DNA of 64,000 bases from an uncultured Clostridia bacterium (GTDB lineage Bacteria; Bacillota; Clostridia; Christensenellales; Borkfalkiaceae): contig CANQJF010000002.1 in NCBI GenBank assembly GCA_947624225.1, positions 17,347 to 81,346 on the forward strand. Reading direction: 5' to 3'. Below the pieces are notes generated by a model. It did no database searches. It was not told the DNA's origin and was given only the letters and a program-made list of their open reading frames with translations. This document shows, in pieces, positions 2,912 through 61,269 of the stretch (position 1 is the stretch's first letter; each line of letters starts with the position of its first letter). Both the position numbers and the translations under genes were made by a program.

Positions 2912-5900
2912 TTAATTGTCGTCGTCCTCGTCTCCGAAGAGATCGCTTGCGGACATGGTATCATCGTCTTCGGTCTTTTCCTCGGTTTCTTCCTTGAAGA
3001 GATCCCCGAAAGAGCCGTCGTCGTCGATGTCCGAGAAGTCGTCGTCATCCTCCTCGTCCTCCTCGCTCTGGAAGAGATCTTGCGAGATGAAGTCCTCATC
3101 CTCGCCCGCATCGTCGAAGATGGAGCCAAGCGTGTCGTCGTCCTCGTCCTCCGTCTCTTGGTCGAAATGGAAGTCGGGTGCGTCGGGATGGGGTTCCTCG
3201 CGGCGGCGGTTGTCGGGCTGGTCGTCATCGTCGAATTCGCGGATGATGAGCTCTTCGTTGTTCTCGGTGAGCACCTTGACGTCAAGCGCAAGGGACTGCA
3301 ACTCTTTGAGGAGCACCTTGAATGCCTCCGGGATCCCCGGTTCGGAGATGTTGTTGCCCTTGACAATGGATTCATACGTCTTGACACGGCCCACGATATC
3401 GTCGGACTTGACGGTCAAGATCTCTTGCAGGATGTGGGCGGCGCCATAGGCTTCGAGGGCCCAGACCTCCATTTCGCCGAAGCGCTGTCCGCCGAACTGT
3501 GCCTTGCCGCCGAGCGGCTGCTGGGTGACCATACTGTACGGGCCGATTGACCGGGCATGGATCTTGTCGTCCACAAGGTGGATGAGCTTGATCATGTACA
3601 TGATCCCGATGGTGACTCTGTTCTCGAAAGGCTCGCCCGTGCGGCCGTCAAAGACCTGGAACTTGCCGTCTACCTTGCCCTCGGGCCCGACGAGGTTGTT
3701 CTCTTCGAACAACTTTTCGATGTCCTGCTCGGTAGCGCCGTCAAACACGGGGGTGGCGATCTTCCAGCCCAGCTGACGGCAGACATAGCCGAGGTGCACT
3801 TCGAGGACCTGCCCGATATTCATACGGGAAGGCACGCCCAAGGGGTTGAGCAAAATTTGCAGGGGAGTACCGTCGGGCAGGAAAGGCATATCCGCCTCGG
3901 GAAGCACGCGGGAGATGACGCCCTTGTTGCCGTGGCGGCCGGCCATCTTGTCGCCGACCTGTATCTTTCTCTTTTGCGCAATATACACGCGCACGAGCTT
4001 GTTGACGCCGGGCGAAAGTTCGTCCTTGTTCTCGCGGGTGAAGATCTTCACATCCACGACGATGCCGCCCTCTCCATGGGGAACGCGGAGCGACGTATCG
4101 CGGACCTCCCTCGACTTCTCTCCGAAGATGGCGCGAAGCAGGCGCTCTTCGGGGGTGAGTTCGGTTTCACCCTTGGGGGTAACTTTGCCGACGAGGATGT
4201 CGCCGCTGCTGACTTCGGCGCCGATGCGCACGATGCCGTTTTCGTCGAGATCCTTTAACGCATCATCGCCCACGTTGGGGATGTCGCGCGTGATCTCCTC
4301 TTCGCCGAGCTTGGTGTCGCGCGCCTCCGTCTCGTGTTCCTCGATGTGGATGGATGTGAATACATCGTCCTGCACGAGCTTTTCGGAGATCAGGATGGCG
4401 TCCTCATAGTTGTAACCCTCCCATTCCATGAATCCGACGAGGATGTTCTTGCCGAGGGCAAGTTCGCCATTGTTGGTGGAGGGGCCGTCTGCAATGACTT
4501 CGCCTTTCTCGACACGGTCGCCCGTGGAGATGATGGGACGCTGGTTGAGGCAGGTCCCCTGGTTGGAACGTTCAAACTTTTTGAGCTTGTATTCGGTCTC
4601 GAAACCCGAATCCTCGCGGATGACGATGCGGTCGGAGGCCACGGCAACCGCAACACCCGCCTCTTTGGCCGTCACCATGACGCCGGAGTCGCGTGCAATG
4701 GCCGCCTCGATGCCGGTAGCCACGATGGAGGGCTCTGTTTTGAGAAGAGGCACGGCCTGCCGCTGCATGTTGGAGCCCATGAGGGCACGGTTGGTATCGT
4801 CGTTTTCGAGGAAAGGAATGAGGGCCGTTGCGACGGAAACGAGCTGCTTGGGGGAAACATCCATGTAGTCGATCCGCTCGCGGGGCATCTCGGTGATGAG
4901 TTCGCGGTAGCGACACCCTACGCGCTCGTGCACGAATCTGCCCTCTTCGTCGAGGGGTTCGTTGGCCTGTGCAACGACATAGCGGTCCTCTTCGTCGGCC
5001 GTCAGATAGTCCACATGGTCTGTGACGATGCCCGTCACCTTGTCCACCTTGCGGTAAGGGGACATGATGAAGCCGTATTCATTGACCTTGGAGAACGTTG
5101 CAAGCGACGAGATGAGGCCGATGTTCTGACCCTCGGGGGTCTCGATGGGGCACATGCGCCCATAGTGGGAGTGGTGAACGTCGCGGACTTCGAAAGTCGC
5201 GCGGTCGCGGTTGAGGCCGCCGGGGCCGAGCGCCGACAGCTTGCGCTTGTGCGTGAGCTCGGCGATGGGATTGGTCTGGTCCATGAACTGCGAGAGCTGG
5301 GAGCTGCCGAAGAATTCACGGATGACGGCGGAGATGGGCCGCACATTGATGAGGTTGGAGGGAGTGACCTCCATGGGATCTGCCGTCGCCATGCGCTCTT
5401 TGATGAGCCTGTCGAGGCGGGACATCCCGATGCGGAGCTGGTTTTGAAGCAATTCGCCCACCGAACGGACCCTGCGGTTGCCGAGGTGGTCGATCTCGTC
5501 GATGGTACCGATGCCATAGCGGAGATCGAGGTTGGTGGAGACGGCGGCAACGATGTCGTCCACGGTGATGCACTTGTGGTTGAGCTTCTCCACGAGGGGC
5601 TTCATCGCCTTTTTCTCGGCGGGAGTGACCCCTTTCACGCGCTTTTCGGCTTCGAGATCGACGGGCGCGTTGGGATCGACGGTGTCGTCGCGGTTCAGGA
5701 TCTCATGGAAAAGGCAGCACGCATGCACGAAAGCAAGACGGCTCATCCTGCGCTTCTCGCGGTTCTTCTTCTCCTCCTGCTTCTCGTCCGCGTCGGGTGC
5801 GGTCTCGCGCGTGTAAAACACGGCATTGATCTCATCCAGAAAATCGTTTGCGACTTCCTCCTCGCTCTTCTGCTTGCAGGCCTCCGCGATCTTCTTGGAG

Positions 5901-7036
5901 AATACGAAGTTGGGATAATAAACTGTCTTTAAGAGGCCGAAAGCCTTGGGATCCTTGTCCGAGAGCGCGGCAAAGTCCACCGTATTGTTGGAGATGATCT
6001 TGTGGCGGATCTCCCCCTCTTCGGGGTCGTTGACGAGCACATACACTTCGCCGATGCCCGCATTCTGAATGGCGCGCGCCTGCTCTTCGGAGACCGTCTT
6101 TCCCTTTTCGGCGAGAAGTTCGCCCGTCTCGGGATGGAAGATATCGTCGGCGATGCGGCAACCGGGCAAGCGGTAGGCAAGGTTGAGTTTCTTGTTGAAC
6201 TTGTAGCGGCCGACCTTGGCAACATCATAGCGGCGCGGGTCGAAGAAGAGGTTGTTGAGATGCTGGCGCACCGATTCCTCGGTGGGGACTTCGCCGGGAC
6301 GGAGCCTCCTGTAAAGGGCAATGAGGCCATCCGATTCCGAACGGACGGGCGGGTTGTCCTTGTCGTCCTTGTCGATGGTGGCGGCGATCATCTTGTCTCC
6401 GCCGAAGAGATCTTCGAGTGCGCGGTTGGACCCATAGCCGAGCGCGCGGAGAAGCACGGTGGCCGTCAGTTTGCGCTTGCGGTCGACATTCACCCAGAGC
6501 ACGCCCTGTGCATCCTGCTTGAATTCCAGCCACGCGCCGCGGCCGGGGATGACCGTCGTCTCATACATCTCCTTGCCGGTCTTGTCCGTCTCGGAGACGT
6601 TGTTGACGCCGGGGGAACGAACGAGCTGGGAAACGATGACGCGCTCCGCTCCGTTGATGATGAAAGATCCGTTTTCCGTCATGAGAGGGAAATCCCCCAT
6701 GAACACGTCGGATTCGATGACCTCATCTTTCACCTTGTTGACAAGGCGCACTTTCACTTTGAGCGGGAGGGAATACGTCGCATCGCGGTTACGGCACTCT
6801 TTTTCATCGTACTTGGGATTCTTGCCGAATTCGTGGTCGAGGAAATAGAGCTCGAAGTGGTCGGAAAAGTCGGTGATGGGCGAGTAGTCCTCGAGGATCT
6901 CTCCAATGCCCTCATTGATGAAAGCATAGTAGCTGTCCTTTTGGATCTCTACGAGGTCGGGAATGTCGATGACCTCGTTGATCTTGCCGAACTTTCTTCG
7001 CTGTGTCTTGCCGTACATTTGGATTGGTAAGTTCAT
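2912..7036 (-). CDS. rpoB: DNA-directed RNA polymerase subunit beta, with an extra acidic C-terminal tail
   Basis: 1374-aa [39 protein letters not shown]... with conserved beta blocks ([52 protein letters not shown]). It lies directly upstream of rpoC. Confidence 0.97.
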
Positions 7037-7334
7037 CCGTCAAATAACTCCTTTGATGTTGTTATCATTTGGCGATTTACCGAGTATATCTTTTCATCGA
7101 TAAAAATCGAAATGTCCGAATAATTTTTGTCCCCTCCCCCTTTACAACGCGGCAAGATCGCGCTATAATATATGGAAAGCGGATAGCCGCGTTCGGGAGC
7201 AAAAAACCACCGAAACGGCACAAAACCTCATTCTAAACATAATGATACAGTATGTTATTATACTGCTTCCAACAAAAGATGTCAACCGCTTTTCAGAGGC
7301 AAAAAAATATTTTTTCGGGATCCGTGAAAAAAAG

Positions 7335-7577
7335 ATGAGAATCGACAAATTTTTGAAAGTATCGCGCATTTTGAAACGGCGCACCGTGGCGCACGACGCG
7401 GCGGAGAGCGGCAAAATTTCCGTGAACGGAAAGGAAGTCAAGCCCTCTTTCCGCCTGAAAGTCGGGGACATCGTGGAGATCTCTTTCATCACCGGCACCT
7501 TAAAATTCCGCGTGTTGGAGCTCAAAGAGACCGTCAAAAAGGATGACGCAAGCAGCCTCTACGAAGTGATCGCATAA
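7335..7577 (+). CDS. rqcP: S4-domain RNA-binding protein, YabO/RqcP (ribosome quality control) type
   Basis: From ATG 7335: MRIDKFLKVSRILKRRTVAHDAAESGKISVNGKEVKPSFRLKVGDIVEISF... closely resembles B. subtilis YabO/RqcP. The ORF-track start at 7242 adds an implausible leader. Confidence 0.8.
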   Translation: MRIDKFLKVSRILKRRTVAHDAAESGKISVNGKEVKPSFRLKVGDIVEISFITGTLKFRVLELKETVKKDDASSLYEVIA

Positions 7578-7920: not shown

Positions 7921-9075
7921 ATGATATCCGTCATTCTCTGTGCCGCGGGCAGCGGCTCCCGTGCGGAACTGCCCGACAATAAAATTTTTTTTGAACTCAA
8001 CGGGCTCCCCGTTCTCGCGCACGTGCTCTCGGCTTTTGCGCCCTTTGCGGATGAGCTTGTGGTCGCATGCCGCGAAGAGGACGAGCCGAAGATCCAAACG
8101 CTTCTGTCCCCCTATCCCGTGGCCCGCACCGTGCGGGGCGGGACGACGCGCGCGGAGAGCGTTTATCGCGCTTTAAAGACGGTAACCGCGGACATGGTAT
8201 TGGTCCATGATGCCGCCCGTCCCTTTGTCACCCCCAAAGTCATTCAAGATTGTATCGATTGCGTGAGGGCTTACGGCAGCGGCATCTGTGCTCTTCCCGC
8301 CACGGACACGACCGTGTTCGCCAAGAATATGCGGGAAATGGGCGTGCGCATGAACCGTTCCGACCTCTATACGGTTCAGACGCCGCAGGGGTTTTATACC
8401 CAAGAATTGCGCGCTGCATACGCGCACGCGGCGGCCGAGAACAGGCTCGGGGAATACACCGACGACAGCATGCTCTACAATGAGCACACGGGTAAACAGC
8501 CCCGCCTCTTTTTGGGCGATCCCGTGAACCGGAAGCTCACTTATCCCGCGGACTTTGCGCCCGCCGAACGCGTGGGGTTTGGCGCGGACACGCACGCGTT
8601 TGCCCACCTCGACGAGCTCGAACACGGCATTGCGCGGCTGAACCTGAACTATATCAAGCTGGGCGGAGTGGTCATCCCCTCGGACCGCGCACTGATGGCA
8701 CACAGCGACGGCGACGTCGTCTGCCACGCGCTCATGGACGCCCTTCTCACCGCCATCGGCGAGCGGGACATCGGCTATCATTTTCCCGACACGGACCCCG
8801 CTTTTGAGGGGGCAGACAGCATGCAATTGCTCGCACGCGTCTTAGACATGGTATGGGGAAAGAAGCTTTCCGTGAAGAATGTGAGCATCTCCATCCTCGC
8901 CGAACATCCCCGCCTTTCGCCCTACATCCCGGCAATGCGGAATAAGCTCGCGGCGGCATTGCGGTGTGAAGATGTGGGCATTGCGGCGGGCACGAACGAA
9001 AAATTGGGCTATGTCGGCGAGGGCAAGGGCATCACCGTCTATGCTATGGCGCTCTTGACAGCCAACCGCGGATAG
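7921..9075 (+). CDS. ispDF: Bifunctional 2-C-methyl-D-erythritol 4-phosphate cytidylyltransferase / MEcPP synthase (IspD-IspF fusion)
   Basis: The N-terminal half has the IspD signature (MISVILCAAGSGSR..., VLVHDAARPF). The C-terminal half is IspF (GFGADTHAF..., SDGDVVCHALMDALL, DIGYHFPDTDP). Confidence 0.9.
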   Translation: MISVILCAAGSGSRAELPDNKIFFELNGLPVLAHVLSAFAPFADELVVACREEDEPKIQTLLSPYPVARTVRGGTTRAESVYRALKTVTADMVLVHDAARPFVTPKVIQDCIDCVRAYGSGICALPATDTTVFAKNMREMGVRMNRSDLYTVQTPQGFYTQELRAAYAHAAAENRLGEYTDDSMLYNEHTGKQPRLFLGDPVNRKLTYPADFAPAERVGFGADTHAFAHLDELEHGIARLNLNYIKLGGVVIPSDRALMAHSDGDVVCHALMDALLTAIGERDIGYHFPDTDPAFEGADSMQLLARVLDMVWGKKLSVKNVSISILAEHPRLSPYIPAMRNKLAAALRCEDVGIAAGTNEKLGYVGEGKGITVYAMALLTANRG

Positions 9076-14659: not shown

Positions 14660-16738
14660 TCACTTTACGGAATACAAGAGGTCCGTGTAGGTCGGGAAAG
14701 GCCAATACCGAGAAGCGGTCAACGTCTCCAATTCATCGGCGATCTTGCGGACTTTCTCCATGTCGGGAACGATCACATGCGCCATTGCCTGAGAGGCAGC
14801 GACGTCTCCCGCGGGCACATTTTTGAGGTCATTTTCCAACTCTTTGGTGGAGAGCATCAGCGAATTATTCAGATTGCAGAGCTCTTCCGCCATAACCATG
14901 TCCGTGGAATAGAACATCGTTTTGTTCACAGTGCGCTTGGCCGTGATGGCCGAACAGAGCTCGGCGGCATAGGCGTTGACGGCGGGCCAGATGTCCCGCT
15001 TCACCATCTCCGCCATTGTCTTTGCCTCGATGGCGATGGCTTTCGTGTAGTTTTCGAGCGCGATCTTGGCGCGGGCATGCACCTCCTTTTCGGTGTATAC
15101 GCCCTGCCGCACGAAGAGGTCGATGTTCTCCCGCTTCAAGAGTTCGGGAATGGCGTCGGCCGTCGTCTTGTTGTTGAGCAGGCCCCTCCTCTCGGCTTCG
15201 GGCTCCCAATCCGGGCCGTAACCGTTATAATTGAAGATGATGCGGTAATGCTCTTTCAAGAGCTTTTCGGTGTAAGCCTTGCACGCCTTGGGGAAATCCG
15301 CCGCCCCTTCGAGCACCTCATACGCATCCGAGAACGCCTGTGCCGCCATGGTGTTGAGCACGATGTTGGGGTCGGCGACGGAAGCCCGGGAGCCGAGCAT
15401 GCGGAATTCAAACTTGTTCCCCGTAAAGGCAAAGGGCGAGGTGCGGTTGCGATCCGTCGTATCGATGGGGAAGATGGGCGATTCGGGCACGCCGATGGAG
15501 CCCGGGACGGCCTTTTTGGGGACATATTGCCTGCCCATCACGATGGAATCGACCAATGCGCCGAGCTGGTCGCCGAGGTAGACGGAGATGATGGCGGGCG
15601 GCGCTTCGTCGGCGCCGAGGCGGTGGTCGTTGCCCGCGGACGCGACGCATGCGCGCAATACGCCCTGATATTTATCCACGGCCGCGATGACGCAGGCGAG
15701 GATGAGCATGAAGCGGGGATTCTCCTCGGGATTTTCGCCGGGATCGAGCAGATTGAGGCCCGTATCCGTGGAGAGCGACCAATTGTTGTGCTTGCCCGAG
15801 CCGTTGATGCCCTCGAAAGGCTTCTCGTGAAGCAGGCAGACGAGACCGTGTTTTTTGGCCACTTTCTTCATGAGCTCCATGGTGAGCTGGTTGGCGTCGA
15901 CGGCGACATTGGTCGTCGTAAAGACGGGCGCCAATTCGTGCTGGGCGGGCGCCACCTCGTTGTGCTTGGTCTTGGCAAAGATGCCGTATGACCACAGCGT
16001 CTCGTCGAGATCGCGCATGTATTCGGAGATGCGCGTTTTGAGGCTGCCGAAATAGTGGTCTTCAAGCTCCTGCCCGCGCGTGGAGGGCGCGCCGAAGAGC
16101 GTGCGGCCCGTGAGGATGAGGTCCTTTCTCTTTTCATACACCGCCTCGTCGATGAGGAAGTATTCCTGCTCGGGGCCGACCGTCGTCGCCACCTTTCTGC
16201 ACTCGATGCCGAACAGTTTCAACAGGCGCTTGGCTTGCAGATCGAGGGCGGTCATCGACTTTAAGAGCGGGGCCTTTTTGTCGAGCGTCTCCCCCGTGTA
16301 GGAGACAAAGATGGTGGGGATATAGAGCGTCCCCTCCTTGACAAAGGCGGGAGAGGTGGGATCCCACGCGGTGTAGCCGCGGGCGGCCGAGGTGGCACGG
16401 GAGCCGCCCGAGGGAAAGGAGGATGCGTCGGGCTCGCCGACGATCAGATTCTTCCCCGTCAATTGCATGATCACCCGGTCGCCGTCCGGCTCGATGAAGC
16501 TGTCGTGCTTTTCGGCGGTGAGGTTGGTGAGGGGCTGGAACCAATGCGTGTAGTGGGTCGCGCCCTTGGAGACCGCCCAATCTTTCATGGCGTTTGCAAC
16601 GGCGCCCGCGATGGCAGTGTCGAGCGGTTTGCCCTCGTCGATGGTTTGCCTTAAAGATTTGTAGACCTCCTTAGGGAGCGAATTCTTCATGACTTCGTCG
16701 TGAAAGACATTGCTCGCAAATAGCTCTGTGACGTTCAT
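14660..16738 (-). CDS. glnA: Glutamine synthetase, type III
   Basis: 692 aa. The N-terminus MNVTELFASNVFHDEVMKNSLPKEVYKSL... and the length are typical of GSIII. Conserved HYTHWFQP, NGSGKHNNWS and FEFRMLGS blocks. Confidence 0.92.
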   Translation of the reverse strand: MNVTELFASNVFHDEVMKNSLPKEVYKSLRQTIDEGKPLDTAIAGAVANAMKDWAVSKGATHYTHWFQPLTNLTAEKHDSFIEPDGDRVIMQLTGKNLIVGEPDASSFPSGGSRATSAARGYTAWDPTSPAFVKEGTLYIPTIFVSYTGETLDKKAPLLKSMTALDLQAKRLLKLFGIECRKVATTVGPEQEYFLIDEAVYEKRKDLILTGRTLFGAPSTRGQELEDHYFGSLKTRISEYMRDLDETLWSYGIFAKTKHNEVAPAQHELAPVFTTTNVAVDANQLTMELMKKVAKKHGLVCLLHEKPFEGINGSGKHNNWSLSTDTGLNLLDPGENPEENPRFMLILACVIAAVDKYQGVLRACVASAGNDHRLGADEAPPAIISVYLGDQLGALVDSIVMGRQYVPKKAVPGSIGVPESPIFPIDTTDRNRTSPFAFTGNKFEFRMLGSRASVADPNIVLNTMAAQAFSDAYEVLEGAADFPKACKAYTEKLLKEHYRIIFNYNGYGPDWEPEAERRGLLNNKTTADAIPELLKRENIDLFVRQGVYTEKEVHARAKIALENYTKAIAIEAKTMAEMVKRDIWPAVNAYAAELCSAITAKRTVNKTMFYSTDMVMAEELCNLNNSLMLSTKELENDLKNVPAGDVAASQAMAHVIVPDMEKVRKIADELETLTASRYWPFPTYTDLLYSVK

Positions 16739-17775: not shown

Positions 17776-17806
17776 CTTGTTTCGGACATGGGGTGCACTG
17801 ATGACG

Positions 17807-21017: not shown

Positions 21018-21419
21018 TTATCCGATGCGGAATTCCGCGAGAAGCGGGCGGCCGAAGAAATTCTCGTCGATATAGATGACGCCTCGCTCGAAGTGATAGG
21101 TCCGCGAATACGTTTCCGAGCCTTTCACCGCGGACATGGTTATCTCCTCTTCTGTCTCATCCACCGTATACGTTCCTCCCCACTCCCCGAACGCACCGTC
21201 TTTGCTCCGATAGGACAGCGTGAAGTCCCCGCCGTATTCGAGTTCCAGAGAGAGGGTGTAATCGTCGATGACCTCTCCGCCGAGGCGGATCCCATCACAT
21301 GTGTACACACCTGCATACGGGCAGGAAATTTCCGAGAGCGTGCTCATTCTTTGCACGTCGCAACCCGCCATGGTACAGACGGAAAACAGCAAGCCGACGG
21401 TCAGACATAATTTCCACAT
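21018..21419 (-). CDS. Small lipoprotein, function unknown
   Basis: 133 aa. Signal peptide with a lipobox (LLFSVCTMAGC). Confidence 0.6.
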   Translation of the reverse strand: MWKLCLTVGLLFSVCTMAGCDVQRMSTLSEISCPYAGVYTCDGIRLGGEVIDDYTLSLELEYGGDFTLSYRSKDGAFGEWGGTYTVDETEEEITMSAVKGSETYSRTYHFERGVIYIDENFFGRPLLAEFRIG

Positions 21420-24389: not shown

Positions 24390-25952
24390 TTGAAAAAGAC
24401 CTTCGAAGTCATGGAGAACGGAGTTAAAAAGGAGAGGGTCGTATCTTACATCCCTCTCCGTTATCTCTTGAATATTCTTCTTATCTTCTTTGAAATCGCC
24501 GCCGTGATTGCCATTTTGAGCCTTATCACGATCTATGTCCCCTATTTTTATTTTGCCGTCGTCGCAACACAAGTTGGCGTTGCGATCAGCATCATCGCAC
24601 GAAACGATAACCCCGATTATAAGCTCCCGTGGCTGTTCTTCGTATTGCTCATTCCCATCATCGGGTTCATGCTCTACTTCATGTTTTATGATAGAAAGCT
24701 CAACCGCAAACAGCGAAAAAATGTGGAACGGGCAAAATCCGAGACAACGGGAAAAGACGATTCGGCGGAATTTCTCGCCTTAAAAGAGCAGGACGAACTC
24801 GTATATTCGCAGGCGGTTTCTCTTACAAAACTTTCCGCGTCCCGCCTCTACTTCGGAACGGCAATTCAATATTTCCCCCTCGGCGACGAGCTGTTCCCCG
24901 CACTTATTGAGGACTTGAAGAAAGCCGAAAAGTTTATCTTTATGGAATACTTCATCATCGAGGGCGGGCTGTTCTGGGATTCCATTCTTCATGTCTTGAA
25001 AGAAAAGGCAACGGCGGGCGTGGAGGTTCGCGTCGTCTATGACGACATCGGGTGCATGATGACGCTCCCCGGCAATTATTACAAGCAACTTGCAAAGGCG
25101 GGGATCAAATGCGTTCCGTTCTCCAAGCTCGGCGGGCAGGCGAACAACAAATTCAACAACCGAAGCCACCGAAAGATCACCGTCATCGACGGAAAAGTGG
25201 GCTACACGGGCGGCGTCAACCTTGCCGACGAATACATCAACCGCATCGTAAAACACGGGCATTGGAAGGATGTCGGGTTGCGCCTCGAAGGCGAAGCGGT
25301 GAACGAGCTGACGAGGCTGTTCCTCATTGATTACAATCAGAACGTCAAAAAGCCGACGGACGCCTTCGGGAGCTATTATGGGCATACCATGTCCGAGGGA
25401 GAGGGCTACTGTATTCCGTTCGGCGACGGTCCGAAGCCCATTTACGACAGGCAGGTTTCCAAGACGGCGATCATGAATTTATTAAACGGCGCAAAACGGT
25501 ATGTCTATATCACGACGCCCTATCTCATTATCGACAATGAGCTTGCCTCGGCAATCGAAAATACCGCGCTTCGCGGCGTGGATGTACGCATCATCACACC
25601 GCACATTCCCGATAAAAAGCTCGTCTTTTTGATGACGAGAAGCTACTATCCGCGCCTTATGGCGGCGGGCGTAAAGATTTTCGAGTACGAGAAGGGCTTT
25701 ATTCACGCAAAGACCTATTCGGCGGACGGCGAGGCGGCAATCGTCGGCACCGTAAACCTTGACTACCGTTCGCTCGTCCACCACTTTGAAAACGGCGTGT
25801 GGATGTACCAAAGCTCTGCAATCGCAGACATGGAAAAGGACTTCCTCGCTACGCAAAATCGGTCAATCGAATATCACAGCGAAATGCTCAAACAAAATGT
25901 ATGGCGGCGGTTCGTGGGCGCACTCGTAAAGATTTTCGCTCCGCTTCTATAA
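24390..25952 (+). CDS. cls: Cardiolipin synthase
   Basis: Two N-terminal TM helices and two HKD motifs (HRKITVIDGKVGYTGGVN and HAKTYSADGEAAIVGTVN). Start is TTG 24390, or possibly ATG 24411. Confidence 0.9.
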   Translation: MKKTFEVMENGVKKERVVSYIPLRYLLNILLIFFEIAAVIAILSLITIYVPYFYFAVVATQVGVAISIIARNDNPDYKLPWLFFVLLIPIIGFMLYFMFYDRKLNRKQRKNVERAKSETTGKDDSAEFLALKEQDELVYSQAVSLTKLSASRLYFGTAIQYFPLGDELFPALIEDLKKAEKFIFMEYFIIEGGLFWDSILHVLKEKATAGVEVRVVYDDIGCMMTLPGNYYKQLAKAGIKCVPFSKLGGQANNKFNNRSHRKITVIDGKVGYTGGVNLADEYINRIVKHGHWKDVGLRLEGEAVNELTRLFLIDYNQNVKKPTDAFGSYYGHTMSEGEGYCIPFGDGPKPIYDRQVSKTAIMNLLNGAKRYVYITTPYLIIDNELASAIENTALRGVDVRIITPHIPDKKLVFLMTRSYYPRLMAAGVKIFEYEKGFIHAKTYSADGEAAIVGTVNLDYRSLVHHFENGVWMYQSSAIADMEKDFLATQNRSIEYHSEMLKQNVWRRFVGALVKIFAPLL

Positions 25953-27615: not shown

Positions 27616-27616
27616 C

Positions 27617-31295: not shown

Positions 31296-31340
31296 CTAAT
31301 TCCACCGCTTTTCGGCATACCATGTCCGAAAGAAAGCCTC

Positions 31341-40831: not shown

Positions 40832-40863
40832 AACGAGCATACCATGTCCGAAACAAGATATTC

Positions 40864-45045: not shown

Positions 45046-46131
45046 TCATTCTCCCTCGATCTTATCGGGATAATTTTTCAGCAAGAATTCCCACGCGCCC
45101 TGCGGCAGGGGGAAACGGTAGGCGCCGTATGTGCACCTCGCAACGATTGCACGGTAGCCCTCTCCCTCCGCACGGGAGAGCGCCTCGATCTCTTCCCACT
45201 TCAAAAAGAGGCTGTCCGTGCGCCCCGCCGCCGTCCAATACATCCCCTCCTCATAAAAAGCGAGAAGTTCGCGGGCACGGAATAGGCCGACAAAGCCGCG
45301 GAAGAGCAAAGCCAGCCCAAAGACCAACAGCACCAGGCCCGCCCACAGTCCGACGAAAATGGCGACGAGGATGCCGGCCACCGCGAGCAGACCGCCGCCC
45401 GTGAGAAGAAAGAGGGCGCGCCGTTTGAGCTTTGCATCAGGGGTGAAGAACATCTCTTGGACTTTAAACCGCCCGCTCTTTTTGCCCCGCTCCGCCTCGG
45501 GAGGGCGCTCCTCCCCGACCAATTCCAGCCCGTGAGCGGCAATGGTCTCGATGAGGCGGTCCTTGCGGTCTGTCTGGATGAGGGCGTTCCCGCCCGCGCC
45601 CTTGCCGTCCTTGGCGAGGTAAGAAGTGGGCACTTCGATCACGACCGACCACTCCCCCTCCTCCCGCGCCCGCTTGCGCGAGCAGACGGAGATGAAACGC
45701 ATCCGACTGTACGGGATATCGATCACGGGTCCCTTTTCGGCATGCAGACGGATGCCGCTTTCCGTAAACGTCGCAAGCGTTCCCTCGCCCACGAAGAAGC
45801 TCTCGTCGGAATCGCACCGTTCGAGAAAATCCTTCCTTCGCACCTCGATGCGCCCCGAAACGCGTACAAGGAAAAAGGCGGCGAGGGCACAGACGAGCGT
45901 CCCGCCCGCAAAACTGCCGAGGAGGATGATGAAGAGCTGCAAGCCCAATTGGTCGAATTCATAGAGAAATAGGACGACGACCACGCCGATCAATGCAAAA
46001 ATGGCCAAAATGGCAAGCACGAACGCGGAAACTCCCGCCGCCGCATTGCGCACCGCGAGCGCGTCGGCCCGCTTCTTTTGAAGCTCGGGCGAGGTCGGGA
46101 TTATCTTATCAAACATGTTCTTCTCGGACAT
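45046..46131 (-). CDS. Membrane protein with two TM pairs, each followed by a soluble module (bPH/YdbT-like architecture?)
   Basis: 361 aa, starting MSEKNMFDK with a GGAGG RBS. It ends 61 nt upstream of the mcsA start on the same strand. Confidence 0.6.
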   Translation of the reverse strand: MSEKNMFDKIIPTSPELQKKRADALAVRNAAAGVSAFVLAILAIFALIGVVVVLFLYEFDQLGLQLFIILLGSFAGGTLVCALAAFFLVRVSGRIEVRRKDFLERCDSDESFFVGEGTLATFTESGIRLHAEKGPVIDIPYSRMRFISVCSRKRAREEGEWSVVIEVPTSYLAKDGKGAGGNALIQTDRKDRLIETIAAHGLELVGEERPPEAERGKKSGRFKVQEMFFTPDAKLKRRALFLLTGGGLLAVAGILVAIFVGLWAGLVLLVFGLALLFRGFVGLFRARELLAFYEEGMYWTAAGRTDSLFLKWEEIEALSRAEGEGYRAIVARCTYGAYRFPLPQGAWEFLLKNYPDKIEGE

Positions 46132-46192
46132 GGTACCTCCGTTTAACGTCTGATCGCAAAATCAATGCCCCCGAAAACGCACAGGGCTCTCC

Positions 46193-50397: not shown

Positions 50398-50420
50398 GCG
50401 CTCCCCTTTCGGACATGGTA

Positions 50421-50450
50421 CCCACCTGCCTCGTGCGAGGTGGGTTTTTT
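50421..50450 (+). terminator. Intrinsic terminator of the amino-acid ABC operon
   Basis: CCCACCTGCCTCG-tg-CGAGGTGGG followed by TTTTTT. Confidence 0.8.
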
Positions 50451-51978: not shown

Positions 51979-53666
51979 ATTTTATCGGGCACGCCGATGC
52001 CGAGGAGCGTCAAGGCGTTGGTGAGCACGGCGAGCGCCGCATCGCACAGTTTGAGACGGAATGCCCGGAGCGCCTCCGTCTCCGCCTGCATGATCTTGCA
52101 ATCGATGTAAAATTTATTAAACTTCTGTGCCGTCCCGACGGCATAGCGCGCAATGACGGAGGGCTCGTAGGTCGCTGCCGCCGTTTTGACGGTGTCGGGG
52201 AACTCCGCGAGCGCCTTGATGAGCTCAAACTCCGCGGGGCAGAGCTCGCACACTTGGGCATCCGCATAGCCGATCCCTCCCTCCGCGGCTTTCGTTAGAA
52301 CGGAACGGGCGCGCGCACATGTGTATTGCACATATACGCTCGTCTCTCCGTCAAAGTTAAGAGCCTTGTCGTAGGAAAAAACGATGTCCTTGATCTTGTT
52401 GTTGTAGAGTGCGCCGAACACGACGGCTCCCACGCCCACTTTCTCGGCGACATCCTCCTTGTTTTCGAGGGCGGGATTCTTCTCCTCCAAGACGGCCGCC
52501 GCTTTCTCCACACAGCGGCTGAGCACATCTTCCAGCCAAACCACTTTCCCCTTTCTCGTGGACATGGCCCCGTCTTCGAGGCTCACCATGCCGTAAGCGA
52601 CATGCACGAGGTCCTTTGCCCAGGGCTCGCCCATGAGCTCGATGACCTTGAAGAGCTGTTTGAAGTGCAGATTTTGCTGGTACGCGACGACGTAGAGGCA
52701 CTTGTCGAAATCATAGGTCCTCTTGCGGTAAAAGGCCGCGGCGAGATCGCGCGTGGCATAGAGGGACGCGCCGTCCGAACGCAGCACGATGAATGGCGGC
52801 ATCCCATACTGTTCAAGGTCGACGACCTGTGCTCCCCGGCTCTCCACGAGCAGCCCCTTGGCTTTGAGTTCATCGATGACGGGCTGCATCTTGTCGATGT
52901 AGAAGCGCTCGCCCGCGTAACTGTCGAAAGTGATGTGCAGGCGGTCGTAAATTTTTTGGACATACGCCATCGTGAGCGACTTGAACCAATCGAAAAGCTC
53001 GTTCGCCTCGCGGTCCCCACTCTCGATGAGGCGGAAATATTCGCGCGCCTCGGCCTGCATCTCCTCCGTGGCCTCCTCGTTGAAGCGCACGTAGAGGGCG
53101 TTGATGGCGTGAATGCCCCCCTCCTCTACCTCCTCGCGCTTGCCCCAATGCTTGTAGGCCGAGATGAGCTTGCCGAACTGTGTGCCGTAATCGCCAAGAT
53201 GGTTGATGCCCACAACCGTGTAGCCGAGGGCCTTGAAGATGCGGTAGAGACTGCCGCCGAGCACCGTCGTGGAGAGGTGCCCGATGTGGAAAGGCTTGGC
53301 AATGTTGACCGACGAATAGTCGATGCAGACGGTTTTGCCCCTACCCATGTCCGAGGCCCCATATTGGCTTTTCTCCTCTAAGATGCGGGCGAGCGTCTCC
53401 TCGGCGAGGCGCTCTTTGCCGATGCGGAAGTTGAGATATCCGTTCACCGCCACCACCTCGGGGATGACCTCGTCGGTGGGATAGGCCGCCGCGAGTTCCT
53501 CCGCGATCTTCGCGGGGGGCTTCCTCATGAGCTTCGCAAATTTGAAGCAGGGGAGGGCGTAATCGCCGAGTGCGGTATCGGGGGGAATGGCGATGGCCGC
53601 CGCGATCTCTTCCTCCCCCATGCCCTCCACGGGGAGGCGCGCCGCGATGTATGCTCTGTAATCCAT
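51975..53666 (-). CDS. argS: Arginine--tRNA ligase
   Basis: 563 aa: HIGH-type PFHIGHL, MSTRKG, and a DALR anticodon-binding C-terminus. Confidence 0.95.
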   Translation of the reverse strand: MDYRAYIAARLPVEGMGEEEIAAAIAIPPDTALGDYALPCFKFAKLMRKPPAKIAEELAAAYPTDEVIPEVVAVNGYLNFRIGKERLAEETLARILEEKSQYGASDMGRGKTVCIDYSSVNIAKPFHIGHLSTTVLGGSLYRIFKALGYTVVGINHLGDYGTQFGKLISAYKHWGKREEVEEGGIHAINALYVRFNEEATEEMQAEAREYFRLIESGDREANELFDWFKSLTMAYVQKIYDRLHITFDSYAGERFYIDKMQPVIDELKAKGLLVESRGAQVVDLEQYGMPPFIVLRSDGASLYATRDLAAAFYRKRTYDFDKCLYVVAYQQNLHFKQLFKVIELMGEPWAKDLVHVAYGMVSLEDGAMSTRKGKVVWLEDVLSRCVEKAAAVLEEKNPALENKEDVAEKVGVGAVVFGALYNNKIKDIVFSYDKALNFDGETSVYVQYTCARARSVLTKAAEGGIGYADAQVCELCPAEFELIKALAEFPDTVKTAAATYEPSVIARYAVGTAQKFNKFYIDCKIMQAETEALRAFRLKLCDAALAVLTNALTLLGIGVPDKM

Positions 53667-53816: not shown

Positions 53817-54917
53817 ATGAAATTAGGTGTCGTAGGATTGCCCAACGTCGGCAAATCCACGCTGTTCAACGCCATCACCCGTGCGGGCGCCGAAGCCGCC
53901 AACTATCCCTTTTGCACCATCGAGCCCAATGTGGGCGTCGTGGCCGTGCCCGATGAACGCCTCGACAAGCTCGCCGCCCTCTATGCGAGCAAGAAAGTGA
54001 CGCCCGCCGTCGTGGAATTTGTCGACATCGCCGGTCTTGTCAAGGGCGCCAGCCGCGGGGAGGGGCTCGGCAACAAGTTCCTCTCCCACATCCGCGAGGT
54101 GGACGCCATCGTGCACGTCGTGAGATGCTTTGAGGACGCCAACGTGACGCACGTCGAGAACACGGTGGACCCCGTCCGCGACATCACGACCATCAATCTG
54201 GAACTCATTCTTGCCGACCTCGAAGCCGTCGACAAGCGGCGCGACCGCATCCGTAACGCCGCCCGCGGGGGAGCAGACAAGGCCGCCGCGGCGGAGTTTG
54301 CGTTCCTCGATAAGCTCTACCGTCATCTCGAAGAGGAGCAGCCCGCTTCGTCGCTCGACGTAACGGAAGAGGAACAGGCCCTGCTCGACAACCTCTTCCT
54401 GCTCTCTTCCAAGCCCGTCATCTATTGCGCGAACATCTCCGAAGCGGACATGGGTATCCCCGAAGATGCGCTTCCCCTCGTGCAGGCGGTGAAAACGTAT
54501 GCGAGCGCCCACGGTGCGGAGACCATCGTCGTCTGTGCCAAGACGGAGGCCGAGCTCGCTGAGCTGTCGGATGAGGACAAGGCGGTATTTTTGGAGGAAT
54601 TCGGACTCAAAGAGAGCGGGCTCTCAAAGCTCATCAAGGCGTCGTATTCCCTCCTCGGGCTCATTTCCTACCTCACCGCGGGCGAGAAAGAGACGCGCGC
54701 ATGGACCATCGTGAAGGGCACCAAGGCGCCGCAAGCCGCCGGGAAGATCCACACCGACTTCGAAAAGGGTTTTATCCGCGCGGAGGTCGTGGACTATGAG
54801 ACCCTCCTCGAATGCGGCGGGCTCACGGGCGCGCGCGAAAAGGGCAAGGTGCGCTCGGAGGGCAAGGACTATGTGATGAAAGACGGCGACGTCGTTCTTT
54901 TCCGCTTCAACGTGTGA
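53817..54917 (+). CDS. ychF: Redox-regulated/ribosome-binding ATPase YchF
   Basis: From ATG 53817 (AAGGAG RBS): MKLGVVGLPNVGKSTLFNAIT...; the C-terminal TGS domain ends DGDVVLFRFNV. Confidence 0.95.
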   Translation: MKLGVVGLPNVGKSTLFNAITRAGAEAANYPFCTIEPNVGVVAVPDERLDKLAALYASKKVTPAVVEFVDIAGLVKGASRGEGLGNKFLSHIREVDAIVHVVRCFEDANVTHVENTVDPVRDITTINLELILADLEAVDKRRDRIRNAARGGADKAAAAEFAFLDKLYRHLEEEQPASSLDVTEEEQALLDNLFLLSSKPVIYCANISEADMGIPEDALPLVQAVKTYASAHGAETIVVCAKTEAELAELSDEDKAVFLEEFGLKESGLSKLIKASYSLLGLISYLTAGEKETRAWTIVKGTKAPQAAGKIHTDFEKGFIRAEVVDYETLLECGGLTGAREKGKVRSEGKDYVMKDGDVVLFRFNV

Positions 54918-54997
54918 CGGCATTCCCCCCTACCATGTCTGAAAGACGCACGAAGAAAACATCCGAATAGCACAAGCGGACGGCCTCGCCGTTCGCT

Positions 54998-56841: not shown

Positions 56842-57501
56842 CTATTGTTTTATCACGGTTGTGTGCTGTTTTACGATACAGTTTTCGGGGTAACAGCCGC
56901 GGCAGAGGGTGAGGGGATAGACCGTCGCGTTGCGGCCGACCACCGTCCCCGGGCACAGCACAGCGTTGCAGCCCACTTCGACGCCGTCCCCCAAAAACGC
57001 GCCGCACTTTTTCAGCCCCGTGTCCGCTTTTGCATCGTCCGCGCGGATGAGAACGCGCCCGCGGTCCGCCCGAAGATTGGAGGTCACCGCCCCCGCTCCG
57101 AGATGCGCGCGATAGCCCAAAATGCTGTCGCCGACATAGTTGAAGTGGGGCACCTGCACGCCGTCGAACAGAATGCAGTTTTTGAGCTCGGAGGAATTGC
57201 CGACCACACAATTTTTGCCCACGAGCACGCTCCCGCGGACGAATGCGCCCGTCCGCACTTCGCTCCCCTCTCCGATGACGGCGGGACCGATAATCGTGGC
57301 CGTCGGCGCAACTTTGGCGGCGCGGTGGACGTAAACGCCCCCACCCATGTCCGCGAAGTCGTCGTCAAAACGTAAATTTTCCAAAAAATCTTTGAGCCCC
57401 GCGAGCGCTTCCCACGGGTAGAAAAATTCTTCGAGATATGCCTCTGCCGCCGTATGGCGTAAATCAAAGAGCGCCGAAATTTTGCAATCCGAAATGTTCA
57501 T
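56842..57501 (-). CDS. Left-handed beta-helix (hexapeptide) transferase, GlmU C-terminal-domain-like
   Basis: From ATG 57501: MNISDCKISALFDL... with hexapeptide repeats (IIGPAVIGEGSEVRTGAFVRGSVLVGKNCVVGNSSELKNCILFDGVQV). Confidence 0.7.
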   Translation of the reverse strand: MNISDCKISALFDLRHTAAEAYLEEFFYPWEALAGLKDFLENLRFDDDFADMGGGVYVHRAAKVAPTATIIGPAVIGEGSEVRTGAFVRGSVLVGKNCVVGNSSELKNCILFDGVQVPHFNYVGDSILGYRAHLGAGAVTSNLRADRGRVLIRADDAKADTGLKKCGAFLGDGVEVGCNAVLCPGTVVGRNATVYPLTLCRGCYPENCIVKQHTTVIKQ

Positions 57502-58530: not shown

Positions 58531-58614
58531 AAAAATACCTCCTTGCATGTTTTTTGGCCCATGCGAGAGGTTTTTATACACGCTTTTTGAGGCTATATTG
58601 CGGACATGGGTGGC

Positions 58615-59572: not shown

Positions 59573-60685
59573 ATGATCTATCTCGACAATGCCGCCACGG
59601 GCGGCACCAAACCCTCCTCCGTACAAAGCGCCGTGCTCGCCTCCATGAAACAGTGCGCAAATCCGGGCAGGAGCGGGCACCGCCTCTCCATCGCCCAAAG
59701 CGAACACGTGCTCGCCTGCCGCAACTTTCTCTCCGAGCTCTTCGACGGCTACGGCTTTGAGCGCGTCGTCTTTACGAGGAGCTGCACCGAGGCGCTCAAC
59801 TATGCCATTTTGGGCATTCTCAAAGAGGGGGACCACGCCGTGTGCTCTTCCCTCGAACACAACTCCGTGCTGCGCCCCTTGGAGCATCTCAAAAGGACGA
59901 GGAATGTCTCCTACGATGTCGTCCCCCTCGATGAAAACGGAGGGATAGATGCGGACATGGTGGCATCGTTTGTGACGGATAAGACCAAACTCGTCTGCAT
60001 CACCGCCGCCTCCAACGTGACGGGATTCGCCCCCGATCTGAGGGCCGTCCGCGCAAAACTTCCCCCGCACGTCTTTTTACTTGCCGATGGCGCACAGGCC
60101 GCGGGGCACATTCCCCTCCGCATGCGGGAGATGGGCATCGATGCGCTGGCGATCGCGGGGCACAAGGGCATGCACGCCATACAGGGCGCCGCCGCCCTCC
60201 TCTTCTCCGACCGCTTCGATCCCGCCCCCGTGCTCTTCGGGGGAACGGGCAGCGAGAGCTTCAATTTAGACATGCCCTCTTTCTATCCCGACCGCCTCGA
60301 AGCGGGGACCCTCTCCTATCCCGCCGTGTGCTCGCTCTTCGAGGGCGCACTGCTCGTCAAGGCGCGCCGCGCAAGGGATGCAGAGCACCTCCTCTCGCTG
60401 ACGGCCGCTCTGCACGGGCAGTTGCAAGAGATCGGCTGCGTCCCCTACTCCGCACCCAATGCGTGCGGGATCCTCTCCTTTCGGCATCCCAAATATGATT
60501 CCGAGGAGGCCGCAACGCTCCTTTCCGACCGCTTCGACATCGCCGTGCGCGGGGGTCTGCACTGCGCTCCGCTCGTGCACCGCGCCCTCCGCACTTTCCC
60601 CGAGGGGCTCGTGCGCGCCTCCTTTTCTCCCTTTCAGGGCTTACGGGAGGGACAGGCGCTGATCGCCGCACTCAAACGGCTGTGA
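59573..60685 (+). CDS. Class V aminotransferase / cysteine desulfurase family protein
   Basis: From ATG 59573: MIYLDNAATGGTKP..., SLEHNSV, the PLP-lysine context AIAGHKGMH, GGLHCAPL. Confidence 0.85.
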   Translation: MIYLDNAATGGTKPSSVQSAVLASMKQCANPGRSGHRLSIAQSEHVLACRNFLSELFDGYGFERVVFTRSCTEALNYAILGILKEGDHAVCSSLEHNSVLRPLEHLKRTRNVSYDVVPLDENGGIDADMVASFVTDKTKLVCITAASNVTGFAPDLRAVRAKLPPHVFLLADGAQAAGHIPLRMREMGIDALAIAGHKGMHAIQGAAALLFSDRFDPAPVLFGGTGSESFNLDMPSFYPDRLEAGTLSYPAVCSLFEGALLVKARRARDAEHLLSLTAALHGQLQEIGCVPYSAPNACGILSFRHPKYDSEEAATLLSDRFDIAVRGGLHCAPLVHRALRTFPEGLVRASFSPFQGLREGQALIAALKRL

Positions 60686-60955
60686 TCACATGCGTTTGAG
60701 CTGCTCAACGAGCTTTTTGAGGCGCTTTTTCTTGAAAGCGTCGAGCAGCGGGGAAAAGCGGTCGTAAAAAGCATCGATCTGTTCATTGGTAAGCGTTCCC
60801 TCCCGCTTGCCCTGCACGGCGCGCGCATAGATGGCACTCAGGATCTCTCCCTCGCTACGGCCTCCGTACTCCTTTAAGAGCGCATCTGCCTCTTTGAGCC
60901 ACTCCTCGTCCGATCTCTTCTTGGGGGAAAAATTCGCAAAATCGTCCATAGTCAC
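60686..60955 (-). CDS. Hypothetical protein
   Basis: 89-aa ORF. The helical, charged sequence matches no family I recognise. Confidence 0.45.
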   Translation of the reverse strand: MTMDDFANFSPKKRSDEEWLKEADALLKEYGGRSEGEILSAIYARAVQGKREGTLTNEQIDAFYDRFSPLLDAFKKKRLKKLVEQLKRM

Positions 60956-61011
60956 CTCTTCTATATCCTATGCCCGAACATCGCATTTTGTCCGTCGCAT
61001 AAAATGAGAGC

Positions 61012-61269
61012 ATGGAAACTTTCGTGCTCTTATTTTTACTCACCTATGCGGGCGGCGACGAAGAGACGCGCGGACGGCTCCGTTCCCTCCTCGATTTTTA
61101 TCGGGAAAACAGAGAGCTCATCACCGCATTGACGCAAAATCAAGCACCCATGTCCGAAACAGCGCTTCACGTTCCCCCCAAAGAGAAATGCGACCCTCAA
61201 AAAAACCGACCCCCGGAAGGGGTCGGCGATATGGATGTTCTCCTGCGCTATCTCGGCGGACTTCACTGA
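61012..61269 (+). CDS. Hypothetical protein (weak call)
   Basis: 85-aa ORF. Its 3' end overlaps the convergent S41 protease gene by 7 nt. Confidence 0.3.
   Translation: METFVLLFLLTYAGGDEETRGRLRSLLDFYRENRELITALTQNQAPMSETALHVPPKEKCDPQKNRPPEGVGDMDVLLRYLGGLH

Follow-up and report, generated by a model that had tools for sequence, protein, structure and literature searches.

The DNA analyzed comes from an uncultured Clostridia gut bacterium placed near Candidatus Gallimonas; its nearest kin are rabbit-gut MAGs. The window, a stretch of 64 kb, contains 20 exact copies of the 9-mer CCATGTCCG/CGGACATGG, 12 on one strand and 8 on the other, which lie mainly inside unrelated genes or in the short spaces that follow them (Table 1). 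All 20 of the coordinates given for exact copies in the original prediction were correct. Some of its subsidiary sites required revision: the position 17178, proposed as a one-mismatch copy, has two mismatches (AAGACATGG), and sigK, radA and the ferritin-like ORF, listed as carriers of the word, hold mismatched copies only. The copy at 61148 is exact, but the ORF around it (61012-61269) is doubtful and the copy is therefore probably non-coding; similar flanking peptides occur in short ORFs of several relatives, so this copy appears to be conserved.

Table 1. Copies of the word in the 64-kb window, with their genomic context and their orientation relative to the gene named.
Context	Position	Strand	Remarks
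rpoB, acidic C-terminal tail	2950..2958	-	exact; forward
ispDF	8189..8197	-	exact; reverse, TA-D-M-V
type III glutamine synthetase gene	14896..14904	+	exact; reverse, ST-D-M-V
non-coding, 15 nt past aspS stop	17783..17791	-	forward; terminator hairpin begins 6 nt on
133-aa ORF without Pfam match	21131..21139	-	exact; forward, EIT-M-S-A
cardiolipin synthase-like (PLD) gene	25387..25395	+	exact; forward, GHT-M-S-E
ABC ATPase gene	28512..28520	+	exact; forward, GLT-M-S-V
non-coding, 12 nt past stop of MBL-fold gene	31320..31328	+	reverse; within imperfect palindrome TTTTCGGCATaccATGTCCGAAA, 31308-31332
MBL-fold hydrolase gene	31835..31843	-	exact; forward, VP-M-S-A
432-aa ORF without Pfam match	38072..38080	-	exact; forward, DPT-M-S-E
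non-coding, 308-nt gap between two divergent genes	39091..39099	-	
non-coding, 10 nt past ung stop	40842..40850	+	forward; followed by terminator hairpin
overlaps start codon of gene 45046-46131	46125..46133	-	aaacGGAGGtaCC-ATG-TCC-GAG
non-coding, 12 nt past stop of ABC ATPase gene	50410..50418	-	reverse; terminator-like hairpin (stem 50424-50445) 5 nt on
argS	53345..53353	+	exact; reverse, AS-D-M-G-R
ychF	54445..54453	-	exact; reverse, EA-D-M-G
15 nt past ychF stop, ahead of terminator	54933..54941	+	one mismatch, CCATGTCTG, with extended flanks
hexapeptide-repeat transferase gene	57345..57353	+	exact; reverse, FA-D-M-G-G
non-coding, 5 nt past stop of endonuclease III-like (HhH-GPD) gene	58601..58609	-	forward
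class V aminotransferase gene	59952..59960	-	exact; reverse, DA-D-M-V
doubtful 85-aa ORF, about 50 nt beyond terminator of S41 peptidase gene	61148..61156	+	

The number of exact copies is far above the mean of 0.44 (maximum 2) found in dinucleotide shuffles of the window, and the word ranks first among all 9-mers there. When one mismatch was allowed, 55 copies were found against 17.7 expected. The 13 copies within called genes compare with 0.81 ± 0.79 when codon order was permuted inside genes, and with 2.9 ± 1.5 when the proteins were held fixed and synonymous codons were resampled. These counts exclude chance as the origin of the abundance. The strong over-representation originally claimed is thus borne out by shuffles, codon-aware controls and rank, and it is specific to this word.

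Comparison of copies from the window and from 20-kb loci of relatives (MAG DNA) indicated that the 9-mer is the invariant core of a longer motif, asymmetric and spanning about 30 bp, which consists of G-A-C-G, an A-rich stretch, G.G and then (A/C)CCATGTCCG(A/C)(A/G)(A/G). Among 80 non-orthologous sites, 60% have A at position -16, 55% have C at -15 and 54% have G at -7 and -5, and the flank signal extends to -17. Copies show no strand skew: in the loci tested, 61 of 102 lie in the majority orientation, against 65 ± 3 under no bias. With respect to transcription, 31 of the distinct coding sites run forward and 27 run in reverse; of the 22 distinct non-coding sites, 9 are forward and 13 reverse relative to the upstream gene. 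Within the window, copies are spaced more evenly than random (CV 0.61, P = 0.012). Non-coding copies are mostly single and adjacent to terminator hairpins, and in two loci of relatives (L014 and L078) a copy lies within the terminator stem or loop. The inverted pairs near terminators that had been reported are rare. Several copies do adjoin or enter hairpins, but we found only one perfect pair among the 22 sites, in a relative (L068, 886-909), and the one pair in the window (31308-31332) is imperfect.

In all coding copies of the window the central ATG is in frame, giving x-M-S in 8 cases and D-M-G/V in 6. The fixed frame noted in the original prediction is therefore real for the window, but it is not absolute, as a third frame, encoding H-V-R, occurs at 8 distinct sites in relatives. 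Nor can it serve as an independent hallmark of an uptake signal, because codon usage alone would place 89% of chance copies in the ATG frame. The word also leaves an imprint on proteins: the tripeptides PMS, DMG, DMV, HVR, SDM and ADM are enriched 3- to 15-fold, whereas reversed and similar control tripeptides showed no enrichment. Coding copies fall on variable protein residues, in agreement with the suggestion that these positions are poorly conserved. For USS and DUS, Findlay and Redfield described a tripeptide imprint of the same kind, as well as a bias in frame that follows codon usage (PMC2817400).

Alignment with orthologs lacking the word shows that copies originate through point substitution rather than insertion. 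In argS, ychF and the aminotransferase gene, the word stands in place of ordinary codons with no indel, and orthologs without it are equally long. Word-free relatives have S-D-L-G-A at the argS site, again with no indel, and the ychF copy arose via replacement of K/R by A before a conserved DMG. Copies are retained at orthologous sites much better than the sequence around them. Of 60 alignable sites, 42 retain the word between flanks that are just 68-84% identical, and the argS copy is retained in 11 of 14 (79%) independently chosen word-rich species, which is the 99th percentile for argS 9-mers. The one-off variants found in excess are transitions. The commonest, CCATGTCTG (the T variant), also shows the strongest enrichment among decay products (18 against 0), and species differ most often by a transition within the CpG that the word contains.

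The word is abundant in some relatives and absent from others. Word-rich relatives and the window together (21 sources) contain 122 copies in 452 kb, while 307 kb from word-free relatives, with ArgS identity similar to that of the word-rich ones, contain none. Under an order-3 Markov model, the three richest pools (A-C) are enriched 25- to 43-fold and pool D about 17-fold; P-values calculated on pooled orthologous loci are inflated by the dependence between sites. A search of the word-free relatives for a substitute 'dialect' word found none at the depth sampled. The word is confined to one species group, with apparent loss, though both loss and patchy gain remain readings of its absence because the relatedness tree is a neighbor-joining tree of a single gene.

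The best reading of these observations, which we hold tentatively and with somewhat less than even confidence, is that the word is a candidate DUS/USS-like sequence maintained by biased DNA uptake and recombination. Its origin by substitution, conservation at orthologous sites, tripeptide imprint, restricted distribution, motif of about 30 bp and spacing all point the same way, as do the transitions among decay variants and the association with terminator hairpins. The original prediction had also proposed a signal of this type, or else a HIP1-like genome word. Its case holds for the abundance, the equal orientations, the location in or just after genes and the variable residues, but is weaker for the frame and the inverted pairs. 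The motif would function as double-stranded DNA, marking fragments as 'self' for a group of species in the manner of a DNA uptake sequence. A sequence-specific receptor belonging to the competence machinery, perhaps a minor competence pilin or a ComEA-like protein, would bind fragments bearing it, and these would be preferentially imported and then recombined into the chromosome, so that point mutations creating or improving a copy would be over-transmitted (molecular drive). C-to-T decay would eliminate copies, selection at the protein level would limit coding copies to codon-compatible frames and variable residues, and non-coding copies would gather in the small space left free after a stop codon and before its terminator. 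Competence of the host, the receptor and biased uptake are the steps that we infer in this scheme; Pfam scans of 50 window proteins identified radA as the only competence gene in the window, with no com genes. The prior for an uptake signal is low, because Neisseriaceae and Pasteurellaceae are the only families for which sequence-specific uptake has been described, and Gram-positive DNA uptake, so far as studied, is not known to be sequence-specific. If the reading is true, the word would be a self-DNA tag of a kind not known in Gram-positive bacteria.

It should be noted that all the population-genomic hallmarks would equally be expected if selection for a binding protein acted at each site, or if repair were biased in this sequence context. 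These are the two main rival readings. In the first, the word would be bound by an abundant sequence-specific protein of the chromosome (nucleoid-associated, or related to compaction or sporulation), and ordinary selection would preserve each site for the sake of regular spacing in chromosome organization. This explanation is unlikely but fits much of the data: highly specific recognition over about 30 bp, a typical footprint size, more even spacing than random, conserved orthologous positions and use independent of orientation. The reverse complement of the word also comes within one mismatch of the SpoIIID core, GGACAAG. No nucleoid protein is known, however, to impose an exact 9-mer site about every 3 kb on coding DNA at an amino-acid cost, and the known organizing motifs KOPS, SRS and parS are strand-skewed or few. 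Moreover, whole sub-groups among close relatives lack any copy, which suits a drive system that can be dispensed with better than it suits a requirement of chromosome architecture. We give rather little credence to a HIP1-like by-product, in which a methyltransferase and mismatch or very-short-patch-type repair with an unusually long context would turn near-matches into a functionless word. Origin by substitution, near-variants that are transitions and the prevalence of the CpG transition between species agree with it, and the species distribution is compatible with gain and loss of an enzyme. CTAG (O/E 0.02) and CCGG (0.2) are extremely avoided in these genomes, pointing to active pressure from restriction, modification or repair. 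Yet repair restoring C at the CpG predicts that CCATGTCTG should be rare, when it is in fact the most enriched decay product, and CATG frequency is ordinary (O/E 1.06). VSP systems are known to recognize 4-5 bp rather than 9 bp with flanks to -17, and the word, unlike HIP1 and typical methylase sites, is not palindromic.

Two further explanations were considered. A signal at the RNA level, whether for processing or stabilizing the 3' UTR or for starting translation internally, would fit the resemblance of the extended motif to an A-rich stretch, GGAGG, a spacer and ATG TCC GAA. The upstream flank is often Shine-Dalgarno-like at the right distance from the ATG, the copy at 46125 is a real gene start, and 6 window copies lie 5-15 nt past stop codons. 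This reading, including the 3'-UTR processing alternative raised originally, is largely refuted by the nearly equal orientations in genes (31 and 27) and in non-coding DNA (9 and 13); the upstream flank is in many cases rich in C instead of G, no Rfam match was found within the window, and we consider it very improbable. We attach the least weight of all to an origin of the copies as pieces of a single family of mobile repeats (REP/BIME, MITE or Rickettsia-type in-frame palindromic elements), or to a polar motif (Chi, KOPS, SRS), even though the word is very abundant, some copies are near terminators, and hairpin repeats of unrelated soil bacteria happen to hold the same 9-mer as inverted pairs. 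The repeat around copies never exceeds the motif and has neither a hairpin nor terminal repeats, and orthologs without the word show no insertion. Insertion of such elements was rejected for the sampled sites on the equal length of the orthologs at argS, ychF and the aminotransferase gene, as was the original refuting case of a single mobile family; a polar motif was rejected on the lack of strand skew within loci.

Among known systems, Chi, KOPS and SRS are, like the word, over-represented short oligomers within genes, but their strong replication-strand skew has no counterpart here, and their over-representation is just a few-fold compared with an excess of about 40-fold. HIP1 of cyanobacteria (GCGATCGC) is likewise a hyper-abundant short word, spread by substitution through genes and spacers, and a link to a methylase is suspected. 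It is a palindromic octamer, however, whereas CCATGTCCG differs from its own reverse complement and has asymmetric flanks, and the HIP1-like identity considered originally fails on this point. The USS of Pasteurellaceae (9-bp core AAGTGCGGT, motif of about 30 bp) shares with the word an invariant non-palindromic 9-bp core with weaker, partly A-rich flanks, a frequency of about one copy per few kb in both orientations, even spacing, and coding copies made by substitution in codon-compatible frames, with enriched tripeptides at variable residues. The H. influenzae genome, about 1.8 Mb in size, contains 1,471 USS, or roughly 0.8 per kb compared with 0.3 per kb for the word. The two differ in sequence and in phylum, the host of the word belonging to the Bacillota, which have no outer membrane; the word also has few inverted pairs, and its role in uptake is putative.

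The DUS of Neisseriaceae (the 10-12-mer ATGCCGTCTGAA and its dialects) resembles the word in being lineage-specific, present, absent or altered from one related species to the next, in its frequency at terminators and gene 3' ends, in its conserved orthologous sites and in decay variants that are single transitions. About half of DUS/USS (DUES) copies, and more than 90% of those in inverted repeats, are located within terminators (preprint 10.1101/2025.10.24.684340). Terminators built from inverted pairs are frequent for both DUS and USS but rare for the word, and DUS is read by the minor pilin ComP, whereas the receptor of the word is putative. In every respect computed, the word appears to match the 'self-DNA tags' by which Neisseria and Haemophilus import their own DNA, and it is a candidate for the same function.

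The 9-mer CGGACATGG and its reverse complement CCATGTCCG were counted in the window and compared with 100 dinucleotide-preserving shuffles of the same DNA. All 20 copies of the original prediction were confirmed at the coordinates it gave, against a shuffle mean of 0.44 and a maximum of 2, and no other 9-mer in the window is as frequent; with up to one mismatch, 55 copies were found where 17.7 are expected. Coding sequence holds 13 copies, whereas permutation of codon order within genes gave 0.81 +/- 0.79, and resampling of synonymous codons with the proteins held fixed gave 2.9 +/- 1.5. Since both codon controls fall below 13, amino-acid choice and synonymous choice are both bent toward the word. 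The predicted over-representation held up under shuffles, codon-aware models and order-3 Markov models, and chance or codon usage is excluded as its source by the shuffles and codon-aware controls. Within the window, the copies are spaced more evenly than expected at random (CV 0.61, P = 0.012).

Genes were called in the window with a self-trained codon model and checked with Pfam. Those identified were rpoC, rpoB, ispDF, radA, glnA (type III), a sigma factor, aspS, cls, ABC transporters, an MBL-fold hydrolase, ung, clpC, mcsB, argS, ychF, nth, a class V aminotransferase, an S41 peptidase and CotF. Called ORFs contain fourteen copies, and in every one the central ATG is in frame, as had been claimed; eight are read as xCC-ATG-TCC-G (T/P-M-S) and six as xCG-GAC-ATG-G (D-M-G/V). 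The fixed frame had also been taken as a hallmark of uptake words. A single frame is indeed used within the window, but codon usage predicts it: under a codon-aware model the observed frame takes 89% of chance copies in each orientation, the remaining frames requiring the rare codons TGT, CAT, TGG and ACA. Therefore, any process that respects codon usage yields a single frame, and Findlay and Redfield concluded likewise for USS and DUS, the DNA uptake words of Pasteurellaceae and Neisseriaceae (PMC2817400). Six copies in the window are non-coding, and five of these lie 5-15 nt past a stop codon beside a terminator hairpin, in agreement with the predicted placement between stop codon and terminator; the one-mismatch copy at 54933 is placed in the same way. 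Of the other sites listed as one-mismatch copies, 17178 differs from the word by two.

In the window and the loci of about 20 kb of its relatives (L001-L080), 145 copies reduce to 80 distinct sites. Forward coding copies occupy 22 sites in the x-M-S frame and 8 in the H-V-R frame (as in the NEEDHVR motif that McsB has in ten species), reverse coding copies occupy 24 sites in the D-M-x frame, and 4 sites are in other frames of ORFs that are partly spurious; 22 sites are non-coding, and with respect to the gene upstream 9 of these are forward and 13 reverse. No larger repeat was found surrounding the copies. The flanks are non-random across non-orthologous sites, with G at -17 (49%), A at -16 (60%), C at -15 (55%), G at -14 (49%), an A-rich segment from -12 to -9, G at -7 and at -5 (54% each) and A or C at -1 (85%); directly 3' of the core are A or C and then two purine-rich positions, and A is found at +24 and +25. 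We conclude that the functional unit spans ~30 bp and is asymmetric, with an invariant 9-bp core. Because GC skew tracks the orientation of genes and so gives no direction of replication, the balance of orientations within loci was used; the majority orientation accounted for 61 of 102 copies, compared with 65 +/- 3 expected without bias. With no strand skew, a polar motif of the Chi, KOPS or SRS type is excluded.

Most non-coding copies lie between a stop codon and a hairpin, and two are built into terminator hairpins. The inverted pairs predicted near terminators are represented by one perfect pair, but they are rare overall. When metagenomes were searched for pairs of the form CCATGTCCG-N(0-30)-CGGACATGG, the matches listed were mostly unrelated soil hairpin repeats in which the 9-mer happens to occur as an inverted pair (contigs L111, L128, L139, L142, L155, L156, L162, L164, L173, L187, L197, L200 and others; for example, CCATGTCCGCTTTACCCCCGAAAGCGGACATGG and CCATGTCCGGGGTCTGACCCCGGACATGG), which resemble REP-type elements belonging to unrelated bacteria. 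The metagenome contig Ga0137306_103595 (L115, GC 65%), from a higher-GC, Firmicute-looking bacterium, has six copies in 11.3 kb. Its flanks (gCCATGTCCGc) are unlike the motif of the window and loci, and the copies could be due to chance from GCC-ATG-TCC codon usage or could represent a second word-bearing lineage.

The closest relatives of the window ArgS (93-72% identity) are uncultured Clostridia MAGs, mainly from rabbit gut ('Lapin' bins), chicken gut (Candidatus Gallimonas species, Clostridia incertae sedis in NCBI) and mouse gut (bins labelled Christensenella or Christensenellaceae); an exact-protein look-up gave no identical ArgS on record. The proposed search of related genomes for the same word found it in about 20 species of the 80 loci, at 0.14-0.55 copies per kb, with zero copies in many other species at equal ArgS distance. 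In a single-gene NJ tree, the word-rich species make up most of one large clade, inside which a word-free sub-clade (L010, L016, L018, L022, L025, L038) and L004 are nested; two Gallimonas species (L052, L068) are moderately word-rich. Word-rich relatives and the window together total 122 copies in 451,634 bp versus 0 in 306,941 bp for word-free relatives. Under an order-3 Markov model, word-rich pools A, B, C and D had 36, 25, 18 and 15 copies for expectations of 0.84, 0.66, 0.73 and 0.90, respectively, and the word-free sub-clade had none in 127 kb for 0.99 expected. No replacement ('drifted') word was detected in word-free lineages at the sampled depth, where the only strong words are extended -10 promoter boxes. 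The sequence TCAGAATGA, considered as a 'dialect' word of some relatives, was rejected as part of a longer non-coding repeat family. Among 120 loci from a scan of viral contigs for TACCATGTCCGAAA, 111 were single-copy, consistent with chance, and there was no word-rich phage.

At the argS site, word-rich species have TCG GAC ATG GGT AGG GG (S-D-M-G-R-G) and word-free relatives have TCC GAC CTC GGC GCG GG (S-D-L-G-A-G), of equal length. In ychF, the residue in front of a conserved D-M-G is K, R or F in word-free species but A (GCG) in word-rich ones, a change that completes the word, and the aminotransferase site likewise has clustered substitutions. Copies therefore arise through point substitutions, some of which replace an amino acid, rather than through insertion of an element. 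A synonymous-codon conservation test at argS was partly circular and was replaced by a test on 14 species picked independently by their word count outside argS; 11 keep the argS copy, which ranks 28 of 1,648 nine-mers in the gene for conservation, although among outgroups this position varies. When related species are compared in pairs, 42 of 60 alignable sites keep the intact word, with the surrounding 300 nt 68-84% identical. The commonest difference between species, at 8 of 18 differing sites or about half, is the CpG transition CGGACATGG to CAGACATGG (equivalently CCATGTCCG to CCATGTCTG), seen at 54933-54941 and at orthologous sites in L001, L002, L005, L013 and L043; a hint that this CpG may be methylated and prone to deamination. 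One-off variants in excess are likewise transitions: CCATGCCCG occurs 32 times in the word-rich pool versus a scaled 7.4 in the word-free pool, CCATGTCTG 18 versus 0, and CCATGTTCG 9 versus 1.5. The tripeptides PMS, DMG, DMV, HVR, SDM and ADM are 3- to 15-fold commoner in proteins of word-rich than of word-free loci, with P-values that are optimistic because the sites are non-independent; reversed or similar control tripeptides are unchanged in frequency.

Other features of these genomes are included in the table. A second, unrelated repeat family is present in the window as two perfect inverted 27-nt copies of GAGTGTATCCCCTCAAACGAAGTCCGT. Its core ACGAAGTCCG is repeated 18 times over 21.7 kb in L001, inside mosaic intergenic modules (for example, GCGTCATCCTGAGCCGTAATGAC...GAAGGATCCCGAAG...ACGAAGTCCG), GATTCTTCGC..GCTCAGAATGAC modules occur in other relatives, and the second family was also noted for L063, L024, L037, L027 and L031; it resembles a REP/BIME-like mosaic built from short hairpin units. 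Tetramers were counted in the window and L001-L080 pooled (759 kb). CTAG is almost absent (5 in 452 kb of word-rich sequence, O/E 0.02; 3 in 307 kb of word-free sequence), and CCGG (O/E about 0.2) and GGCC (0.3-0.56) are strongly depleted in word-rich and word-free species alike, which suggests that these tetramers are under strong pressure from restriction or repair.

Coordinates of word copies and other features in the window, related loci and one metagenome contig
Feature	Sequence	Position	Remark
rpoB	window	2912-7036	RpoB unusually long (1374 aa); acidic, low-complexity C-terminal tail holds one copy of the word
Second repeat family, copy 1	window	7863-7889	
Second repeat family, copy 2	window	56100-56126	
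Word-free interval	window	31843-38072	6.2 kb, second-longest of the window
1001-aa protein gene	window	32527-35532	BspA-type leucine-rich repeats and collagen-like repeat; low-GC stretch (48.5% vs 55.6%) within the word-free interval, may be recently acquired DNA
Gene starting with the word	window	45046-46131	start codon is one of the 14 ORF copies
Short LRR fragment	window	about 55500-55800	near 55.5 kb; related to the 1001-aa protein
ORF	window	61012-61269	counted among the 14; doubtful
Perfect inverted pair	L068	886-909	
Copy in terminator hairpin	L014	10173	
Copy in terminator hairpin	L078	9035	
Terminator	L115	9072-9097	perfect inverted pair

Several explanations of the word fail on these data. 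Insertion elements of the REP, MITE or in-frame kind are excluded, since hairpins, indels and any longer repeat are absent, and fragments of one mobile repeat family, an alternative the original prediction had allowed for, are contradicted by the lack of a longer repeat and of indels at the orthologous sites sampled. The 3'-UTR processing signal that it had also put forward is argued against by an orientation that is unbiased with respect to transcription and by an Rfam scan of the window, which gave zero matches; an RNA-level 3'-UTR signal or an internal start is an unlikely explanation. The non-coding copies and the use of both orientations exclude selection for a peptide motif, and reading the extended motif as a promoter (sigma-70, ECF, SigK) fails on spacing, in-gene location and the use of both orientations.

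We tentatively favour the reading that the word is a self-DNA tag, maintained by biased uptake and homologous recombination, because its computable properties match those described for DUS and USS. It is possible, and put forward with more reserve, that this asymmetric ~30-bp motif is the first sequence-specific uptake signal of a Gram-positive lineage (Bacillota, Clostridia), lost in close relatives. The word might instead be the site of an abundant chromosomal DNA-binding protein, which we think unlikely. The suggested likeness to HIP1, a palindromic cyanobacterial word, fails as to membership, since the word is non-palindromic; that it is a HIP1-like product of context-specific methylation or repair bias is doubtful, and this reading is weakened by the enrichment, rather than depletion, of the C-to-T variant at the CpG. 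Minor options, even taken together, are improbable.

To our knowledge, sequence-biased DNA uptake is known only from two Gram-negative families, and we know of no identified receptor for USS. Literature searches gave no report of the word (the raw word retrieved only primer sequences) and no Gram-positive (Bacillota) case of uptake sequences beyond the two known families. If the self-DNA tag is real, it would be a third independent case, in which 'self-preferring' transformation evolved in Gram-positive bacteria, and natural transformation would be active in abundant, uncultured bacteria of animal guts. The finding is worth following up mainly because the responsible protein should be findable by comparative genomics: contrasting the gene content of word-rich and word-free sister species could identify it, or the receptor. 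Whatever its function, the word has a measurable effect on protein sequences and serves as a marker of this lineage in metagenomes. In silico it behaves like DUS and USS and may belong to that class. The predicted likeness covers the computable properties; inverted-pair terminators are rare for this word. As described for DUS and USS (PMC2817400; preprint 10.1101/2025.10.24.684340), the word is dense, evenly spaced and present in both orientations, with an extended motif around a strict core; its copies arise by substitution, lie at variable residues and gene ends, use frames as codon usage dictates and enrich the corresponding tripeptides; and it is lineage-specific, conserved among related species and accompanied by transition-type decay variants.
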